Virus record (IMG/VR): IMGVR_UViG_3300035698_021020
Span: 1-64,000 of that record
Origin: a virus
DNA: 64,000 nucleotides
Reading direction: 5' to 3' (one strand)
The translations under genes and the position numbers were made by a program. The notes beneath the pieces were generated by a model, which saw nothing but the letters and a program-made list of their open reading frames with translations, made no database searches and was not told where the DNA came from. Below are positions 2,104-62,916 of the stretch, piece after piece (the stretch's first letter is position 1; every line of letters begins with the position of its first letter).

Positions 2104-2388
2104 ATGGAATTAGTAAAAGGGCCTGGAAAAGGCGAAGAAAACCAAAAACCAACGGTGACAGGAGATCCAATTGCAGCACCAGCTCCAATATCAGCAGAAG
2201 CTGTTAGAGAAGCACCATGGGCAAAATGTGAAAAATGTGAAGGAGAAGTCTTCTCTCAAGAAAGAATTAAAATAAAAATGATCTCGAAGTTCTTAACTGG
2301 AGATACACAAGATCAAATTATACCAATGCCAGTGATTGCATGCGCCGCTTGTGGACATGTTAACGAGTTATTTCAACCTAAAATATGA
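2104..2388 (+). CDS. Zinc-ribbon protein
   Basis: CEKC...CAACGH cysteine pairs. Confidence 0.6.
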   Translation: MELVKGPGKGEENQKPTVTGDPIAAPAPISAEAVREAPWAKCEKCEGEVFSQERIKIKMISKFLTGDTQDQIIPMPVIACAACGHVNELFQPKI

Positions 2389-3806
2389 TTGTAGGATCTC
2401 AAGTATTACCTGATGGAACATTGCTCATCTCTTATTATGATAGTAATGGTAAAATTGCTTATTTCAAAAAGAGGCTAATGCCTCATGAACTCTTTAATTG
2501 GGTAGAATCAAAACAACCGACTAAAGATCAAAATTGGAATGGTCTTCCTGTAAAACAGCAAATAACTAAACCACAATATGTAAGTCCACATAGGATACAG
2601 GAAATTATACTTGAAAAGTTCTCGTCTGCTGAATCTGGTCTCATCTATAATAATGATAACTTTCCTAAGAAAGCATATATGGATATTGAGATAAAGGTAG
2701 ATGAGAGTAATGATTTTCCAGATTCTGAAAAAGCTGCAATGGAAGTTGGACTTATTACTTTCTGTGATGAAGACAATGTTTTATACGTCCTTTCATCATT
2801 AGAGAATCAAGAATTTCCAGATGGATTAACTCCAGAAACCATTGTAAAAATGGAAAATGAAGTTCATGAATATTTTAGATCAATTAATCCATTGAAAGAA
2901 TCTGATAGAGCAATTCTAAATCAGACATTTAAGGTTAAGCATAAATTCTTTAAAACTGAGGAAGAACTTATGAAATTTTATTTTCATAAAGTTGCACCTA
3001 AACATTCATTCTTAACTGGATGGAACTTTACAGGATATGACTGGAAGTATCTTATGAATAGGGCAAAAAATCTTAAAATAGATTCTTTGGCTGGTTTTGC
3101 AACAAGTAAGACATTCTCTAAGAATAACATACCGACTCACCTTGGTATGCTTGATTACATGGATATATTTGATCAATTGAAACCATATAAAGTAGTAGAG
3201 AACTTAACTCTTGATTACATTGGAAATCTCACGCTTAATGTTAATAAACTTGATCATGGATATGAAACTTATCATGAATTCCAAAAAGATGCATATCTTT
3301 ATACCTTATATAATGTGATTGACGTTATTATTGTTAAGATGATTGAAGATAAATTTGGACTTTTAGATGTTGCTTTCGAAATGGCAAATATTGCACAAGT
3401 CGAAGTAAGTAGAGCATTCAGTCCAGTATACGTAACTGAGATTTTACTATGTAGAGAATTCTTAAAGGCAAATAAGAAAATGATGAAGCTTCCTTGGGGT
3501 AATACTCCAGAACAAGGAACATATGCTGGAGCATATGTTATGCCTCCTATTCCAGGTCACTATTTTTATGTTGCATGTTATGATTTCGCATCAATGTATC
3601 CAAATATTCAAATTCAATTCAATATTTCTCCAGATTCATATCTTGGAAAAATCGATGAGCTTAGATTAGATGGAACAGAGATCACAACTAAGAACAACAC
3701 AGCATTTGATAATAGGAAAGATTCAATGGCTAGAAATATATTAACTAGCCTTTATAATCAGCGAGTTGAAACAAAAGATCAAATGAAAAAATTAAAAGCA
3801 GCATAA
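2385..3806 (+). CDS. Family B DNA polymerase, N-terminal subunit (3'-5' exonuclease plus motif A)
   Basis: ExoI YMDIE, ExoII GWNFTGYD, ExoIII YNVIDV, motif A YDFASMYPNI. Ends in the fingers domain and lacks motifs B and C. Confidence 0.88.
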   Translation: MIVGSQVLPDGTLLISYYDSNGKIAYFKKRLMPHELFNWVESKQPTKDQNWNGLPVKQQITKPQYVSPHRIQEIILEKFSSAESGLIYNNDNFPKKAYMDIEIKVDESNDFPDSEKAAMEVGLITFCDEDNVLYVLSSLENQEFPDGLTPETIVKMENEVHEYFRSINPLKESDRAILNQTFKVKHKFFKTEEELMKFYFHKVAPKHSFLTGWNFTGYDWKYLMNRAKNLKIDSLAGFATSKTFSKNNIPTHLGMLDYMDIFDQLKPYKVVENLTLDYIGNLTLNVNKLDHGYETYHEFQKDAYLYTLYNVIDVIIVKMIEDKFGLLDVAFEMANIAQVEVSRAFSPVYVTEILLCREFLKANKKMMKLPWGNTPEQGTYAGAYVMPPIPGHYFYVACYDFASMYPNIQIQFNISPDSYLGKIDELRLDGTEITTKNNTAFDNRKDSMARNILTSLYNQRVETKDQMKKLKAA

Positions 3807-20509: not shown

Positions 20510-21046
20510 ATGGAGAATAGTAAAACAATAACTGATTTCCTAGACAAGGAATATCGAGACTATGCAGTTTATGTTCTTGAGGAACGAGCTATTCCATCTG
20601 TAATTGATGGATTTAAGCCAACTCAAAGAAAAATCATTTATATTGCAGATAAAGTCTGGAAGAATGGAAAAGAGAAGCCTTTGAAGGTATTCCAACTTGC
20701 AGGTAGAGTTGCAGCAGATGCTAAGTACCATCATGGCGACTGTCTTGATCCAGATACTGAGATATTATTAAGTGACGGTTCATATATCACAATATGTGAA
20801 TGGTTTGAAAAATATCGAGATACTAAACTTAAAGTTTTAGCATTTGATGAATCTACTGATAAATTTGTAGAAGCAATCGGTCATTCTCCTAGGATAGGTC
20901 AAGTTACTGATCTTGAGTATGAAATTGAGATGGAAGACGGTAGCATATTCAAATGCACAAACAATCATCCGTTCTTAACTCAGCGTGGATGGATTAAAGC
21001 TAAAGATTTAGAGGAAGACGACGACATAATAAATTTAAAATCATAA
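20510..21046 (+). CDS. Topoisomerase II small subunit (gp52/GyrA-like) N-extein fused to split-intein N-half
   Basis: ERAIPSVIDGFKPTQRK...YHHGD, then intein block A CLDPDTEILLSDG (from 20741) and block B CTNNHPFLT. Confidence 0.9.
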   Translation: MENSKTITDFLDKEYRDYAVYVLEERAIPSVIDGFKPTQRKIIYIADKVWKNGKEKPLKVFQLAGRVAADAKYHHGDCLDPDTEILLSDGSYITICEWFEKYRDTKLKVLAFDESTDKFVEAIGHSPRIGQVTDLEYEIEMEDGSIFKCTNNHPFLTQRGWIKAKDLEEDDDIINLKS

Positions 21047-21098
21047 TCCATCACCTTGGTGATATTTAGCCTAATAAATAAAATAAAAGCTAGTCACT

Positions 21099-22034
21099 AT
21101 GGAATTAAAATGCGATAAATGCAACATAATGTATAATAATAGCCCATATCTAAATACTAATAGAATTAATAATGATCCTATTAGATTTCTACATACATGT
21201 AAGGAATGTAGAAAAATTAAGAAATGTGGAAACTGCAATAATGAATTTAAACATTATCAGAATCAAACATGTTCTAAGAAATGTGCAGCTATTCTAAAGG
21301 AGAAAACATATATGTTAACACAGGGAGCTCCACATAATTTTTCTAAGAATTCGAAATCTAAAATTAGAATACAATTAGAATTACTAGAAAATGAAGGAAT
21401 ATCTAATGTTTTTCAAAGGGATACAGTAAAGGCTGCAATTAAAGCCACTATGATGACAAGATATGGTGTAGACAATATATCGAAATCTGAAGATATTAAA
21501 ATTAAAAAGAAAGAAACTCTTCGTCAAACGTTAATTGATAATCCTGATCTATTTAAGAACAAATGGTGGGAGAATCATAATAGATTTATAAATGACATAG
21601 GATATGATCCAAGATTGAGTATATTTGGAAAAGCGTCGATTGAATCAATGCTAGTATTTAATCCAATATCTAAATTATGCACATCACTTGGAATACTAGA
21701 ATCTGATATATATGTAGGACATGATACTAAATCTGAATATTTTATTAATATTGGTACTAAAACATATTTCTATGATTTCTGTATTAGATCTAAGAATATA
21801 ATAATCGAATATCATGGTGTCGGATTTCATGCAAATCCTACGTGGGAATTGACTAAACTAAATAAATGGAGATCTGCATTTACAAATGAGACCTCAAGTG
21901 AGAATATTAGAAAGACTAAAATAAAAAATAATGCAGCTATTAATAAAGGATTCAAGATTCTTGAAATATGGAGTGATTCCAATATAGATGACAATATTAA
22001 TCTGTGTAAAGCATTTATAAACGCTAACATATGA
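21099..22034 (+). mobile_element. Free-standing homing endonuclease (Cys-rich N-terminus, Vsr/EDxHD-like C-terminus) within fractured gp52
   Basis: CxxC motifs, YGVDNISK repeat-like segment, YDF...IIEYHG..FH...GFKILEIW. Confidence 0.8.
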
Positions 22035-23275
22035 AAATAAAATCTATTAAAATAAACAATCTAGAATCTCCTAAGAAATTCTATGATATAACCGTAGATA
22101 AGCATCACAATTTTGTAATTGGACGCAAATCTAAAATAGTGACACATAATTCATCATTGAATGGAGCTATTATAACCATGGCTCAGTCATTTAAGAACTC
22201 TATGCCTGTCCTTCAATCAATTGGACAATATGGATCATTACGATCTCCAGAAGCAGGAGCCCCAAGATATGTATCTACTAAACTTCATGAGAACTTCAGA
22301 CAGATCTACATGGATTTTGAATTGCTTACTCCAACTTATGATGAAGGCGATGAGATAGAACCAGAATATTTTCTTCCTATTATTCCAACTGTGTTACTGA
22401 ATGGGAGTTCAGGAATAGCGGTAGGGTTCGCAACTAATATCTTAAATAGAAATCCAATAGTTTTAATTGACTGTTGCCTAAAGGAATTGACTGGAAAGAG
22501 ATTTAATGAGCCTGTTCCATGGTACAATGGATACAATGGAGTTGTGCATAAAGATACAGCATCTGGCTCATGGATATTTAGCGGAAGATGGAATGCTAAA
22601 AATACAACTACTGTTGATATATCTGAACTTCCACCATCTATGACATATGAGAAGTATGACACATATCTTTCAAACAAAGAAGATCTTAGAGCTATTACGA
22701 GTTATGCGAACAGAGGTAAAGGTTCTATTGATTATGAAGTGAAGTTCTCTAGAAGCGAATTAGCTAGATTAACGACAAGTGATAGACTAACTCGTTTATT
22801 GAAGATGGAAGAAAAACAATCTGAGAATCTAACTGTCTTAGATGAGAATAAGAAACTGAAAATCTTCAAAAGCGCATCAGAGATAATCAAATACTTTGTT
22901 GCCTTTAGATTGAAATATTATGATAAGCGAAAAATTCATTTAATTGAGAAACTCAATAGAGAATTATTGATGCTTACAAATAGAGCTAGATTCATTAAAG
23001 ACATTATCGATAGGAAACTGAAAATCAATAATGTTCCTAAGCGAACTATAGTTCTTTATTTGGAAACCGCAGATTATGATGAAGTAGATAGATCATATAA
23101 CTATTTGCTTTATATGCCAATTCACTCACTAACTAAGGAAAGATATGAAGAGATCTTATCTGAAGTAGGAGATAAGAAGGTAGAATTAGTAGCAACAAAA
23201 AAGCTGAAACCTGCTACGATGTATGAAACAGATCTTAAAGATCTCAGATCAGCACTAATTAAGAAATACAAATGA
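22031..23275 (+). CDS. Split-intein C-half fused to topoisomerase II small subunit C-extein
   Basis: MKIKSI...FYDITVDKHHNFV...VTHN|S, then MAQ, GQYGS, catalytic APRY, LLNGSSGIAVGF. Confidence 0.9.
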   Translation: MKIKSIKINNLESPKKFYDITVDKHHNFVIGRKSKIVTHNSSLNGAIITMAQSFKNSMPVLQSIGQYGSLRSPEAGAPRYVSTKLHENFRQIYMDFELLTPTYDEGDEIEPEYFLPIIPTVLLNGSSGIAVGFATNILNRNPIVLIDCCLKELTGKRFNEPVPWYNGYNGVVHKDTASGSWIFSGRWNAKNTTTVDISELPPSMTYEKYDTYLSNKEDLRAITSYANRGKGSIDYEVKFSRSELARLTTSDRLTRLLKMEEKQSENLTVLDENKKLKIFKSASEIIKYFVAFRLKYYDKRKIHLIEKLNRELLMLTNRARFIKDIIDRKLKINNVPKRTIVLYLETADYDEVDRSYNYLLYMPIHSLTKERYEEILSEVGDKKVELVATKKLKPATMYETDLKDLRSALIKKYK

Positions 23276-56101: not shown

Positions 56102-57124
56102 ATGCTTAGGTTTAAAATATCTGAGGACAAGAAAACCGTTAAGCTTGTTCATTTCGATCTGAATTCTGAACGGAGCCACCTAGTTTCTTACTTCAAAAAG
56201 AAATCAAAGAAAGCTGACTTTAATGTGTTGGTTGAACGTGGCATATGGGATGGAATGGATTCATTCTTTAAAGACAACGAGATAAAAATAGGTCTATGGA
56301 AAGAGATCTATAATTTCGCTGACCAATACGGTTATGAAACTGAAATTGAAGGAATAGAGAAGCATCTAAATTTATCATTCACTAAGGAGAAGTATGACAA
56401 GTATGTTACTGATTTACTTGATGGAGTTACTGACGAATTTGGAGAGCCTCTAATTCCAAGAAATTATCAAGCTGAGTCTGCATATAGAGCAATAAAGTAT
56501 AAATTCTGTACTCAAGAACTAGCAACTGCTGCTGGTAAGACCTTAATCTTCTACATATTCAATTCATTCCTTAGAGACGCTGGCAAAATTAACAAAAAGT
56601 CAAAGGCTTTGTTAATCGTTCCAAAGGCTGGATTAGTAAACCAGACAGCACTTGCATTTAACAGATTTACAAAGAAAGGGAGAGATCCACTTAAGCTTTG
56701 CCTAATTGGTGGAAAGAATAAATTCGACCAGAAGATATTTGATGAATCTGAAATGATTATAGCCACTTATCAAAGCCTAAATCATTGGCCAGAGGAGAGG
56801 TTCAAGTCAATTTATTGTGTAGATGTTGATGAATGCTTGCATCCAAGCACTTTAATAACAATGTCGGATTATACTACTAAGTCTATCTCTAATATTAATA
56901 TTGGAGATTCCATAATAACAAAGAATGATATGACTGGAGAACTAGAAGTCAGTGAAGTAGATAAAATACATCATAATTTATCTAGTGAAGAAAATATGTT
57001 TGACTTGGAGTTAGAGGATGGGACTAATATATTACTTACTGGTAATCATAGAATTAAATTAGTATCTGGTGAATATATTAGAGTTGATGAATTAACTGGA
57101 GAAGAAGATATTATGTCCCTCTAA
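56102..57124 (+). CDS. uvsW: UvsW helicase N-extein fused to split-intein N-half
   Basis: WDG, PRNYQ, ATAAGKT, TYQS, VDE, then CLHPSTLITMSD (from 56834) and LTGNHRI. Confidence 0.9.
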   Translation: MLRFKISEDKKTVKLVHFDLNSERSHLVSYFKKKSKKADFNVLVERGIWDGMDSFFKDNEIKIGLWKEIYNFADQYGYETEIEGIEKHLNLSFTKEKYDKYVTDLLDGVTDEFGEPLIPRNYQAESAYRAIKYKFCTQELATAAGKTLIFYIFNSFLRDAGKINKKSKALLIVPKAGLVNQTALAFNRFTKKGRDPLKLCLIGGKNKFDQKIFDESEMIIATYQSLNHWPEERFKSIYCVDVDECLHPSTLITMSDYTTKSISNINIGDSIITKNDMTGELEVSEVDKIHHNLSSEENMFDLELEDGTNILLTGNHRIKLVSGEYIRVDELTGEEDIMSL

Positions 57125-57141
57125 TTTTATGAAGTTCTTTA

Positions 57142-57149
57142 TATAAATA
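57142..57149 (+). promoter_or_regulatory. Perfect T4-type late box TATAAATA upstream of endonuclease
   Basis: Exact TATAAATA ending 12 nt before ATG 57162. Confidence 0.65.
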
Positions 57150-57161
57150 AAAGTAAAGGAA

Positions 57162-57976
57162 ATGACTAAACTCGAATTATATAACCATATAAATACAAAT
57201 AAGTCTAAATTTATTGCTATTTCCGGTAAAAGTATTGATGATAATTTAAAAATTGGTTAGAACAAGAGAAAATATCAATTCCAATACCTAAAATAACAGT
57301 AAATGCAGTATATGACTATCTTTTAAATAATAAAGGAAAATATTGTGCACTTTGTCGTTCTGAAAATAGATTCAAATCTTTAAATTTAGGATATACTTTA
57401 TTTTGTTCAAAGTCGTGTCTTCATAAATGGCGATCTATTAATATGTCTGGTAAAAACAATAATGTCTTTAAAATGTCAAATGAAGCCAAATTAATCAGTA
57501 GAAAAAGGCAATCTGATACTATGAAACAACTTATATTAGATGGTAAGTTTACACCAACTGTAACAAATAGCTGGTGTAAATCTAGAATTAAAGTCAATAT
57601 TTCTAGAAATAGTGAAGATATTATAATATCATGTCGATCATCTTGGGACGCATATTTTCAAATACATAATCCTACTTTTTTATATGAGAATGTTAGAATA
57701 CCATATGAATATTGTGGAAAATTCAAAGTTTATTTAGTAGATTTTGTTGATACTTCTAATAGAAAACTATATGAGATTAAACCAAGTGGATTAATTGAGT
57801 CTAAAATGAATAGACTTAAAGAACATGCTGCTATTTCTTGGGCTAAATCAAATAATTATACCTTTGAATTTATTACTCAAAAATGGTTTAAGAAATACTT
57901 TGATATATCGAAAATAAAAACGCAGTCTGAATATACTAAAATTAAAAGATTACTATCCCAATTTCATGAAAATTAA
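57162..57976 (+). mobile_element. Free-standing PD-(D/E)XK (TnsA-N-like) endonuclease within fractured uvsW, interrupted by a -1 frameshift
   Basis: Frame from ATG 57162 stops at TAG 57258-57260; the -1 frame is open with CALC/CSKSC and joins ORF 57443..57976 (RSSW, YE..RIPY, YLVDF, YEIKP). Confidence 0.75.
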
Positions 57977-58928
57977 AAAAATAACAAAATTAGGTAGGGC
58001 AGGGGAAGTTTTTAACTTGCGTATTAAAACACAATCTGATGCAAATCATAATTATTTTGCAAATGGAATAAATGTAGCAAATTGTCATAAAAGTAGAGGA
58101 AATGTAATCAAGAAGGTAATAGAATACTGTATAAACTGGAGATATATGCTTGGTTTATCTGGAACAGTAAAGCTTGATGAAAAATACTCCGATTATTTCA
58201 GAATGCTTGAAACAATTGGTCCATTGGTTCTTACTTTATCTGCGAAGCACCTAATTGACAATCAGTATTCTCCAAATATCAAAATTAAGCAAATTAAGCT
58301 GGCTTATGATAAAGATAGTGAATATTTGAAGAAATATTGGGACTTGAAGGCAAATGGGGCTTCCATGTACTCAAATAAGCGAGATTTTGGAGGAGATATG
58401 TTCGAATTGGAAAAACAATTCCTTTATAATAATCCAGAACGACTATCTTTCATAAATGAACTAGTTAGGCGTCTAAATAAGAACACATTAGTCTTATTTT
58501 CGAATATCAAAGATGAATATGGCAAAAAGATATATGAAGAGATTTCAAAATGGAATAAGCATACCTTTTATATCGATGGTGAAGTAGATAATGATCTTCG
58601 TGAACAATATAAGGCAATAATGGAAGCAGAAGACAATGTTGTCATCGTTGCTTCATTTGGGACGTTCTCAACCGGTATTGATATTAAGAAAGTGTATCAC
58701 ATTATCTTTGCTGAATCAACCAAAGCTGAAATAACCATTCGCCAATCGATAGGTAGAGGAATGAGAGCGTTTAAGAATAAATTAGCAACATATATTTGGG
58801 ACATCGTCGATATGCTTGATGGATATATGGTCAAGCACTCAAAGGCTCGACTTAAGATCTATAAAGAGCAGAAATTTGAAGTATCTAATATGGATGTAGA
58901 TCTAACGAAGTTCAATAAGCCTAATTGA
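57966..58928 (+). CDS. uvsW: Split-intein C-half fused to UvsW C-extein
   Basis: MKIKKI...VFNL...NHNYFANGINVAN|CH, then GLSGT, STGIDI, QSIGRGMR, DIVD. Confidence 0.9.
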   Translation: MKIKKITKLGRAGEVFNLRIKTQSDANHNYFANGINVANCHKSRGNVIKKVIEYCINWRYMLGLSGTVKLDEKYSDYFRMLETIGPLVLTLSAKHLIDNQYSPNIKIKQIKLAYDKDSEYLKKYWDLKANGASMYSNKRDFGGDMFELEKQFLYNNPERLSFINELVRRLNKNTLVLFSNIKDEYGKKIYEEISKWNKHTFYIDGEVDNDLREQYKAIMEAEDNVVIVASFGTFSTGIDIKKVYHIIFAESTKAEITIRQSIGRGMRAFKNKLATYIWDIVDMLDGYMVKHSKARLKIYKEQKFEVSNMDVDLTKFNKPN

Positions 58929-61476: not shown

Positions 61477-62916
61477 ATGGAAGACAATTCTAAACTACTT
61501 AAGAAGCTCGATCTAAAGCAAAATGCGATCAAGCTTCTTATCAACTCTATTTATGGCGCATTTGGAAACAAGTGGTTCTACTTTTTCAATAGAGACATAG
61601 CTCAATCAATTACTTTACAAGGACAAGATTTAATTAAATTCAGTATTAAAGCTGCTAATCATTATTTCTACAATAAGTGGCACCTCGATACTGAAGTTCA
61701 TAAGTTATTAGGTATAGACCATTACAAAATCAATAAAATTGATTATGATGCATCGATTTATAGTGATACAGATTCAGTATATGTTCAATTTGATTCTGCT
61801 ATTGCTTCAATAGAAGGATTTGACTATACTGATATTGAAAAAGGTCTTGAAATATGTATTGCTCTAGATAGATATCGAATAGCTCAGTATTTTACTGATT
61901 GCTTTGATAAGTACAGCAAATTATTCAACACAAAAAACCGTCTTAATCTTGAATTAGAGAATTTATCAGAATCTGGAATATGGTTAGCCAAAAAGAATTA
62001 TGCAATTAAAGTTGCATATGAACCTAATGCAAACTTTGCAGTATTGCCTCCAAAGGACAGATATATGATAATTAAAGGATTGGAACCAGTTAAGAGTTCA
62101 TATCCAACTTGGGCTAGAACGAAATTAAAGGAACTAACTGAATATATGGTGAAAATGGGTAAAACCCTTAATATTGAGGAGGACCTTATGCCTAAACTCA
62201 AGGAACTTGAAGAAGAATTTCAAAATGTTCCTCACCATGAAGCATCATTCAATTTCAAAATTCGAGTTTACAATAAGTATATTGAGAGTGAAAAAGAGCT
62301 TCGACTACTGAAGGGTATTCCAATATATTCTAGAGCGGCAGCTTATTACAATCACAGATTACTTCAAACTGGTTTAAATAAGAAATATAGCTTACTTCGT
62401 GAAGGTGATAAAATCAAGTATTATTTTTGTGAACAAAATGAAAATGATTTTGAGATCTTTGCGTATCATCCAAGTAAATTTCCAGACGAAATAGTTCCTC
62501 CATTGGATCGTACGAAGCAATTCTTTGCATTGATTGTGGAACCAATGAATAGAATATTAACAGCTATGAGAATGAGTTCACTAGATGAAGATCTAAAACG
62601 AGCTGTTCCATATGTGAATACTAAAACTAAGAAGGTATTAACTGATGCTGATTTGTTTCCACTTTACATCATCAATATAGAATCCTTAGAATATGTAGAA
62701 GTACCTGAGAAATTCTGGAAAATTATTGGAAATCCTAATGTCGAAGTTCCTGATGAATATTATGAAGAATATCTTTCAGTCATCACTAAATATGGTTTAA
62801 ATTCCGCAATAGTCACTAAAATCGAACTTCCAAAATACCTTAAGCGGCTTGAACGTAAAGCTGAGCGTCTTGCTAAAAAAGAAGAAGAAGCTAAGTTAGC
62901 ATTACAAAATGGATAA
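61477..62916 (+). CDS. Family B DNA polymerase, C-terminal subunit (motifs B and C, thumb)
   Basis: QNAIKLLINSIYGAFGN, ITLQGQ, YSDTDS, KKNY, KGLE. Confidence 0.9.
   Translation: MEDNSKLLKKLDLKQNAIKLLINSIYGAFGNKWFYFFNRDIAQSITLQGQDLIKFSIKAANHYFYNKWHLDTEVHKLLGIDHYKINKIDYDASIYSDTDSVYVQFDSAIASIEGFDYTDIEKGLEICIALDRYRIAQYFTDCFDKYSKLFNTKNRLNLELENLSESGIWLAKKNYAIKVAYEPNANFAVLPPKDRYMIIKGLEPVKSSYPTWARTKLKELTEYMVKMGKTLNIEEDLMPKLKELEEEFQNVPHHEASFNFKIRVYNKYIESEKELRLLKGIPIYSRAAAYYNHRLLQTGLNKKYSLLREGDKIKYYFCEQNENDFEIFAYHPSKFPDEIVPPLDRTKQFFALIVEPMNRILTAMRMSSLDEDLKRAVPYVNTKTKKVLTDADLFPLYIINIESLEYVEVPEKFWKIIGNPNVEVPDEYYEEYLSVITKYGLNSAIVTKIELPKYLKRLERKAERLAKKEEEAKLALQNG

Follow-up and report, generated by a model that had tools for sequence, protein, structure and literature searches.

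The window analysed here is a stretch of 64,000 nucleotides (nt) of viral DNA, positions 1 to 64,000 of the IMG/VR record IMGVR_UViG_3300035698_021020, whose contig measures 72,390 bases and has 33% G+C. The sequencing runs that match the stretch carry the label salt lake metagenome, and the T4-type genes of the window include those for the gp23 capsid protein, UvsX, a gp41-like helicase, gp46/47-like proteins, topoisomerase II and PhoH. Our subject is the helicase gene uvsW, which is broken in two on the plus strand between positions 56102 and 58928. Each part is fused in frame to one half of a putative split intein, and an endonuclease gene lies in the gap.

The first open reading frame (ORF), 56102..57124 (+), encodes 340 amino acids (aa) and reads ...SIYCVDVDE/CLHPSTLITM...LLTGNHRIKL...EEDIMSL up to its stop codon, the slash marking here and below the predicted splice junction. 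Its first 244 codons (56102..56833, +) form the N-extein, which carries helicase domain 1 with the Walker A motif AAGKT and ends with the Asp-Glu of motif II. The following 96 codons and TAA (56834..57124, +) form the N-terminal half of the intein (IntN), with block A, CLHPSTLI, starting from Cys1 (codon TGC, 56834-56836), and block B, TGNH. A spacer of 37 nt (57125..57161, +), containing TATAAATA at 57142-57149 and AAGGAA just 5′ of the next ATG, separates the IntN stop from the endonuclease start. The endonuclease gene itself is in two pieces. A 5′ piece of 32 codons closed by TAG (57162..57260, +, frame A) begins with MTKLELYNHINTNKSKFI, and it overlaps, in the +1 frame, a main piece of 243 open codons and TAA (57245..57976, +, frame B) in which the first ATG is at 57443. 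The 3′ end of this gene overlaps by 11 nt the ATG of the last ORF, 57966..58928 (+), which encodes 320 aa. The latter starts with MKIKKITKLGRAGEVFNLRIKTQSDANHNYFANGINVAN, the 39 codons of the C-terminal intein half (IntC; 57966..58082, +), with block F VFNL...NHNY and block G NVAN, and continues as CHKSRGNVIKK... into the C-extein (58083..58928, +; 281 codons and a stop), which opens with the Cys-His that remains of motif II (Cys+1 codon TGT, 58083-58085) and carries helicase domain 2. The two exteins add up to 244 + 281 = 525 aa. The locus thus has the parts of what has been called a fractured gene, namely a broken enzyme gene with in-frame intein halves and an endonuclease ORF between them (57162-57976, here frameshifted). 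A first-pass annotation of this DNA had proposed a 244-aa N-extein ending in VDVDE, a 96-aa IntN with Cys1 at 56834 and TGNH, and a 39-aa IntC ending in VAN before Cys-His; all of these agree with the ORFs at every coordinate.

Both exteins resemble the UvsW helicase of T4. In Pfam, the N-extein matches DEAD (E-value, E, 2.7e-9) and ResIII (E 2.5e-8), and the C-extein matches Helicase_C (E 1.1e-7); a match of the window's UvsW to UvsW_N (E 0.002) lies under the Pfam cut-off. Among PDB sequences, T4 UvsW is the sole match for either extein half at E <= 0.01, the N-extein matching 1rif (E 5e-9) and the C-extein 2oca (E 1.7e-22), with Cys+1 paired with Cys234 of CHLATGKS. PHROG profiles that derive from split halves cover each of the two ORFs along with its intein part (phrog_16259, E 5.7e-39; phrog_9690, E 1.6e-57). 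We take the host gene, which belongs to a T4-like genome, to be a T4-type UvsW, a superfamily 2 helicase, this being by sequence its nearest characterised relative over both RecA-like domains. No second uvsW was found on the 72,390-base contig, and the fractured gene is the only detectable uvsW of the window.

The position of the break is given by the intact homologues. A protein search returned 109 relatives, 101 of them devoid of any Hint or intein domain and mostly 520-526 aa long; the remaining 8 are N fragments of 329-381 aa, each ending in a homologous IntN. The intact homologues, 50-66% identical, are colinear across the break, where they read VDECHKSRG, VDETHKSR or VDEVHKSKG. The break falls between the Glu and the x residue of the DExH motif II. 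Because the intact homologues read VDE[C/T/V]HKSRG across it, splicing would restore motif II with the Cys as its x residue. The earlier proposal that splicing would rebuild DE/CH in a 525-aa UvsW is therefore backed by these colinear homologues and by the 1rif and 2oca matches.

Taken alone, the intein halves of the window are weakly recognisable. Compared with PDB sequences, the IntN has weak matches to DnaE and DnaB inteins (best E 0.0022) and the IntC has zero matches at E <= 10. A profile of the IntC family was aligned instead, and it set VYNL/VsN against VYDI/VHN of the Spl DnaX mini-intein (7cfv). Because the window IntN matches Pfam and PDB only weakly, the intein identity was settled by the family context, and in particular by a natural contiguous mini-intein of 139 aa at the same site (locus L003), which is 53% identical to the window IntN and 62% to the window IntC. 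The alignment of this mini-intein with the Npu DnaB intein 4o1r runs from end to end (E 1.9e-6), and through it the FNL of the window pairs with FDL, and VA(N) with VH(N), of 4o1r. Its model adopts the HINT fold with a predicted local distance difference test score (pLDDT) of 92.3 and a predicted template modelling score (pTM) of 0.86. A Foldseek search with the model gave 65 matches at E <= 0.001, the intein matches having template modelling (TM) scores of 0.74-0.85, and the top matches listed are inteins, intein-like domains or Hedgehog HINT relatives. The bacterial intein-like BIL2 domain ranks first, followed by the Ssp DnaB intein 1mi8 (TM 0.80/0.85) and then by two inteins of fractured genes, NrdJ-1 (8ubs) and gp41-1 (6qaz). 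Since only this relative was modelled, the HINT fold of the window's own IntN and IntC pair is predicted by homology.

The residues of the active site fall into two groups. All three class-1 nucleophiles, Cys1, the terminal Asn and Cys+1, are present in the window, as are the Thr-x-x-His of block B (TGNH in the IntN) and the block F His (NHNY). The two assisting residues, Asp at block F position 4 (F:4) and the penultimate His, are replaced by Asn and Ala, respectively; both substitutions had been noticed in the first-pass annotation and are now placed by the alignments to Npu DnaB 4o1r and the Spl DnaX mini-intein. The same division holds among the relatives. Cys1 and the T, G, N and H of TGNH are invariant in the 33 aligned IntN. 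In the 78 related IntC, the terminal residue is always Asn, the +1 residue always Cys and the +2 residue always His; Asn occupies F:4 in 75 of them and Thr in the other 3, and the residue before the terminal Asn is Ser (69), Ala (6) or Glu (3), but never His. Asn at F:4 and a penultimate residue other than His are thus fixed traits of this metagenomic family rather than defects of the window copy. Because the nucleophiles are strictly conserved beside these fixed non-canonical helpers, we favour an active intein with a variant active site over a dead one. According to the passages of PMC4031507 that treat these positions, Asp F:4 and the penultimate His are common but not obligatory in inteins, F:4 being most often Asp, described as an assisting residue, then Cys, then Trp; splicing without the penultimate His has precedent there in two works cited by title. 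The reference list of this review includes Sun et al. 2005, whose title has the words 'without the penultimate histidine'.

The relatives were collected by an IntN profile search of IMG/VR, which returned 106, the best 80 of these 106 being taken as loci; at the nucleotide level, a blastn comparison of the whole region with a phage collection gave a single match of 126 bases with 70.6% identity, and relatives emerged at the protein level. The intein lies directly after ..DE in all 80 loci. It is split around the same endonuclease family in 53, around a 76-aa remnant of this endonuclease in 2, around another insert of 279-1716 nt in 8, and has no insert between its halves in 7. A contiguous mini-intein of 135-139 aa is found in 9 loci, and 1 locus is incomplete. 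The spacer after the IntN is mostly 6-59 nt long among relatives. The 3′ end of the endonuclease gene overlaps the IntC start by 4-50 nt in 50 of the 52 loci that have both features, which suggests translational coupling. Identity of the intein correlates with identity of the exteins (Spearman 0.58 over 66 loci), a value suggestive of partial co-divergence with some transfer, on which we make no claim.

Our preferred reading, to which we give a probability of about 85%, is that a class-1 split intein sits in motif II (DE/CH) of uvsW and that a free-standing homing-endonuclease gene fills the gap between its halves. Two polypeptides, of 340 and 320 aa, would be made separately, and the IntN (96 aa) and IntC (39 aa) would come together as a single HINT domain. 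The standard acyl shift, trans-thioesterification and succinimide formation would then be carried out by Cys1, Cys+1 and the terminal Asn, and a UvsW of 525 aa would be released whose DECH box is intact. As a HINT domain of ~15 kDa would occupy the ATPase site, the helicase should be inactive until spliced, and we reasonably infer that its activity depends on splicing.

Several points weigh against this picture. Splicing itself is deduced from sequence alone, and the window IntN, taken by itself, falls short of the Pfam cut-offs both for Hint (28.8 bits, cut-off 29.7) and for Intein_splicing (15.7, cut-off 35.8). Asn at F:4 and the missing penultimate His could make splicing slow or bias it towards cleavage side-products. 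The frameshift in the endonuclease gene breaks the coupling that 50 of 52 relatives apparently use, so that the yield of the C-terminal half could drop. Finally, the contig is incomplete and an intact uvsW may therefore lie elsewhere in the genome.

The gene in the gap matches phrog_15427, annotated 'endonuclease' (E 4.8e-30), and its main piece has an N region rich in Cys and a nuclease domain of the TnsA-like PD-(D/E)xK type. Among 28 family members compared with Pfam, Tn7_TnsA-like_N was found in 15, NUMOD3 in 6 and DUF559 in 2. E148, D166, E177 and K179, the canonical PD-(D/E)xK set, are invariant in the alignment. The likeness to TnsA came from the fold search, a comparison of the endonuclease profile with PDB sequences having given chance-level rows only. 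The model of the endonuclease (pLDDT 93.1) has TnsA, 1t0f_A, as its best match (Z 10.2, root mean square deviation 3.6 over 141 residues); the next best match has Z 6.1, with Vsr at 5.7 and I-Bth0305I at 5.5. The Vsr-like (EDxHD) type does not fit: the active site has the E..D..ExK motif in place of Asp, His and Asp with an added Glu, and the Z to TnsA is 10.2. Since the ExK residues are invariant and the TnsA fold matches far better, the gap gene is, by its predicted structure, a restriction-fold homing endonuclease set apart from the Vsr-like type described for fractured genes. In the past, this enzyme presumably helped the element to spread through cleavage of uvsW alleles that lacked the intein.

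In the window this endonuclease gene is interrupted. Its two pieces align head to tail with the single intact ORFs of relatives (269-340 aa), whose N-termini are matched by MTKLELYNHINTNKSKFI. Colinearity requires a −1 shift at T TTA AAA (57245..57251, +), which contains the start of an A5 run (57248-57252) and at which the shifted reading becomes ..IDDNLKNWLEQEKI.., gap-free against the relatives. The loss of one base from an A6 run would give exactly A5, so this frameshift is an expected product of such a loss. We lean towards an inactivating mutation, with somewhat more confidence than an even chance would warrant, and most likely the endonuclease of this phage is decaying. A sequencing error is markedly less probable, although it deserves consideration; the site is covered by one contig only, of run X1 (depth ~5), which is probably the source sample, and contigs of the runs X2-X4 miss 57230-57260.

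A third explanation, which we consider improbable, is a programmed −1 slip of the ribosome on U UUA AAA. It would provide a low, regulated amount of full-length nuclease, and the shifted ribosomes would also reach the overlapping IntC start. The site is a formal X XXY YYZ heptamer, the −1 shift restores exact colinearity, the 243 codons that follow the shift are still open in DNA of 33% G+C, and relatives conserve overlaps like that of 11 nt seen here with the IntC ATG. However, the fold predicted 3′ of the slip site is no better than that of shuffled sequences (z +0.89; 165 of 200 shuffles fold as well), so that the downstream structure such a slip would use is not predicted. Moreover, the endonuclease is one ORF of 219-368 aa in 53 of the 55 loci that have it, and no relative shows the split. 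The one-base loss described above explains the layout equally well, and coverage of the site by a single X1 contig at depth ~5 adds to the doubt.

Two further observations concern the start of the endonuclease gene. A search for a hairpin in the 5′ spacer gave nothing above shuffles (z +1.37). The octamer TATAAATA found 5′ of the gene was considered as a T4-type late promoter and rejected: on both strands of the window it occurs 6 times against 13.6 expected, none of them before gp23, and is thus rarer than chance, 99 of 100 shuffles holding at least 6. Two of the six matches, at 57142 and 57188, sit at the endonuclease gene start.

Turning from the nuclease to the intein itself, its halves could act as a clasp that docks without splicing, Asn F:4 and the penultimate Ala having abolished the reaction, and UvsW would then work as a non-covalent two-piece enzyme, by analogy with endonuclease-split genes that have no intein. 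Both assisting residues are indeed non-canonical, and a topoisomerase split intein of the same genome keeps the canonical Asp and His, from which it follows that these residues are not generally dispensable in this phage. We nevertheless hold a non-splicing clasp to be quite improbable. Cys1, TxxH, the block F His, the terminal Asn and Cys+1 are all retained in the window, and the invariance of the nucleophiles in 78/78 IntC and 33/33 IntN is unexpected if docking alone mattered. In the 9 of 80 loci where the intein is contiguous, failure to splice would leave an insert of 135-139 aa within motif II.

It could also be argued that a mobile element has simply destroyed uvsW, neither half being functional, and the frameshifted endonuclease of the same cassette does indicate that decay is under way in the region. 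Against this, both extein ORFs are full length, retain all helicase motifs and are 50-66% identical to intact homologues, and the layout with open frames recurs in 70 of the 80 loci and in cultured phages; we regard a dead gene as very unlikely. That a chimeric or mis-assembled contig created the three-ORF layout has a negligible chance in our view, in spite of a low-depth metagenome assembly (depth 5-8) and of a DNA polymerase gene in two pieces 57 kb apart on the same contig, since independent Logan contigs of run X1 match 56315-57145 and 57145-58928 with zero differences, unitigs of three other studies are 100% identical to parts of 56102-58928, and 53 IMG/VR loci, as well as finished phage genomes, share this order of parts.

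The trans-splicing reading places the locus beside the fractured genes of Dassa et al. 2009 (PMC2677866), a paper that reports eight host enzyme types and names seven in its text, gp41, IMPDH, DnaE, NrdA, NrdJ, ligase and terminase, at loci including gp41-1 to -9, NrdA, NrdJ-1, IMPDH-1, DnaE, ligase and terminase. As described in that text, they are, like the window locus, DNA-metabolism enzyme genes of phage origin broken in two on one strand, with the halves in frame with IntN and IntC. A spacer of 27-51 nt (37 in the window) precedes a free-standing endonuclease ORF that overlaps the next ORF, and the IntN and IntC measure 88-105 and 33-54 aa, ranges that include the 96 and 39 aa found here. 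There are also differences. UvsW is not among the host enzymes named in the text of that paper, though its supplementary table may differ, and with respect to that text the location within the DExH motif II is a new one. The window endonuclease is neither GIY-YIG nor of the Vsr-like type of that paper; it has E..D..ExK and is closest to TnsA. The window intein is without Asp F:4 and without the penultimate His. A description of a UvsW intein was not found in the literature, although the supplements of Dassa 2009 and of split-intein library papers could list one; a term search within PMC4760082 found no mention of UvsW.

A cultured counterpart is Salmonella phage S16 (locus L081, NC_020416, 104626-107352), where gp114, gp114.1 and gp115 occupy the T4 uvsW position adjoining uvsY. 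The order of the three genes is the same: ..NDE/CFDGDTLI..TGNH.., an endonuclease homologue, and ..VVYNLHVKTNHNYFANGALAHN/CHLATGKS. The S16 IntN match spans residues 31-94 of the window IntN at 47% identity. S16 differs in having kept the penultimate His (AHN) and in its endonuclease ORF, which is intact and 291 aa long. In its record, two genes bear the name 'DNA helicase' and one is a 'hypothetical protein'; an intein is not mentioned, and the literature searches turned up no paper on this S16 locus. The same element is present in the finished genomes of STP4-a, of CF-SP2 (as uvsW_1 / uvsW_2), of Proteus phage PM2 and of Prevotella Lak phages, where the annotation likewise stops at helicases and a hypothetical protein. 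S16, a cultured T4-like phage, shows that the layout is viable, and records such as S16 could be re-described as one spliced UvsW and a homing endonuclease. Just upstream of the split uvsW, S16 has a further annotated homing endonuclease gene, gp113. The layout is thus a fractured gene of a known kind, and its family is large and mostly unannotated, not rare.

Two other systems share some of these features. The split inteins of cyanobacterial DnaE (Ssp, Npu) are class 1 with Cys1 and Cys+1 and, like the window intein, lack the penultimate His; the first-pass annotation had pointed to the Ala-Asn end of Ssp DnaE. They give weak sequence matches to the window IntN (E 0.007-0.01), and the DnaE intein 4kl5 is a fold match to the model of the contiguous family member L003 (TM 0.76/0.80). 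DnaE split inteins keep Asp at F:4, and their halves are encoded at distant loci with no endonuclease between them, whereas those of the window flank an endonuclease gene. I-Bth0305I, a Vsr-like (EDxHD) enzyme (PMC3239194; PDB 3r3p), provides an example of the restriction-endonuclease-like fold in free-standing or intron-borne homing endonucleases of phages; its structural match to the window nuclease has Z 5.5. The window nuclease differs by its invariant Glu, Asp and Glu-x-Lys and by its better match to TnsA (Z 10.2 vs 5.5).

With this locus, UvsW joins the enzymes of phage replication and repair whose parts would have to be reunited by protein trans-splicing, here at a site in a DExH ATPase motif. 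We add a more speculative proposal in two parts, which taken jointly we hold to be rather doubtful: that catalysis is partly handed to the insertion site and, separately, that the TnsA-like nuclease is a third, undescribed family of homing endonucleases of the free-standing type in fractured genes. Although the metagenomic members have neither Asp F:4 nor a penultimate His, the invariant Asp-Glu (−2/−1) and His (+2) of the helicase always flank them, and from motif II these residues might serve to activate Cys+1 and to aid the cyclisation of the Asn. If this were true, the splicing chemistry would be tied to the DE/CH site, which would explain why 80 of 80 relatives are located there. Whatever the chemistry, the family offers a set of Cys/Cys split inteins with a short IntC (35-42 aa) and unusual assisting residues as potential protein-ligation tools.

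The forms collected at this one site span the supposed life cycle of such an element, from a contiguous mini-intein, through split forms with an intact or a decaying nuclease, to split forms without a nuclease. In one locus (L018:5001-5423), an IntN of 140 aa has a tail, ..NRCCPVC...CCNCKHKF.., that resembles the Cys-rich N region of the endonuclease fused to the IntN; the IntC begins at the next base and the nuclease gene is gone, so that the tail appears to be a remnant of endonuclease loss. Seven contiguous forms (L003/L004 and L073-L077) retain the Met-Lys that starts the IntC of split relatives (..EDYF-MKIKSIKKI.., ..LRHC-MKLIKKTEI..). With this Met-Lys kept, they may have arisen when split halves fused again once the nuclease was lost, and need not be ancestral to the split forms; the contiguous L021 (..GIKISEI..) and L042 (..LLGRVC..) are without it. 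In two further loci (L013 and L016), the same intein and endonuclease are found at DE/CH with flanks dissimilar to the UvsW halves of the window (SLEE.. and ELDD.. after CH), and the host gene there may be a different helicase.

The window holds two other genes in pieces. The family-B DNA polymerase gene lies in two parts 57 kb apart, 2385-3806 (+) and 61477-62916 (+), the first ending at position 141 of the Pfam DNA_pol_B profile and the second beginning at position 147. An intein signal is absent from both pieces, and this split may represent a gene in pieces without an intein, an effect of circular permutation, or a mis-assembly. The other case is a second fractured gene, that of the topoisomerase II A subunit, at 20510-23275 (+). 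Its first ORF, 20510-21046, reads ..KYHHGD/CLDPDTEI..CTNNH.., the latter part being the IntN, and its last, 22031-23275, starts with MKIKSIKINNLESPKKFYDITVDKHHNFVIGRKSKIVTHN/SS.... Between them lies ORF 21099-22034 (311 aa), whose only match is a weak one to DUF7487 (E 5.2e-5); the uvsW endonuclease is not its paralogue. The topoisomerase intein is canonical, with the Asp of block F (FYDI), the penultimate His and a Ser at +1 (THN/S).

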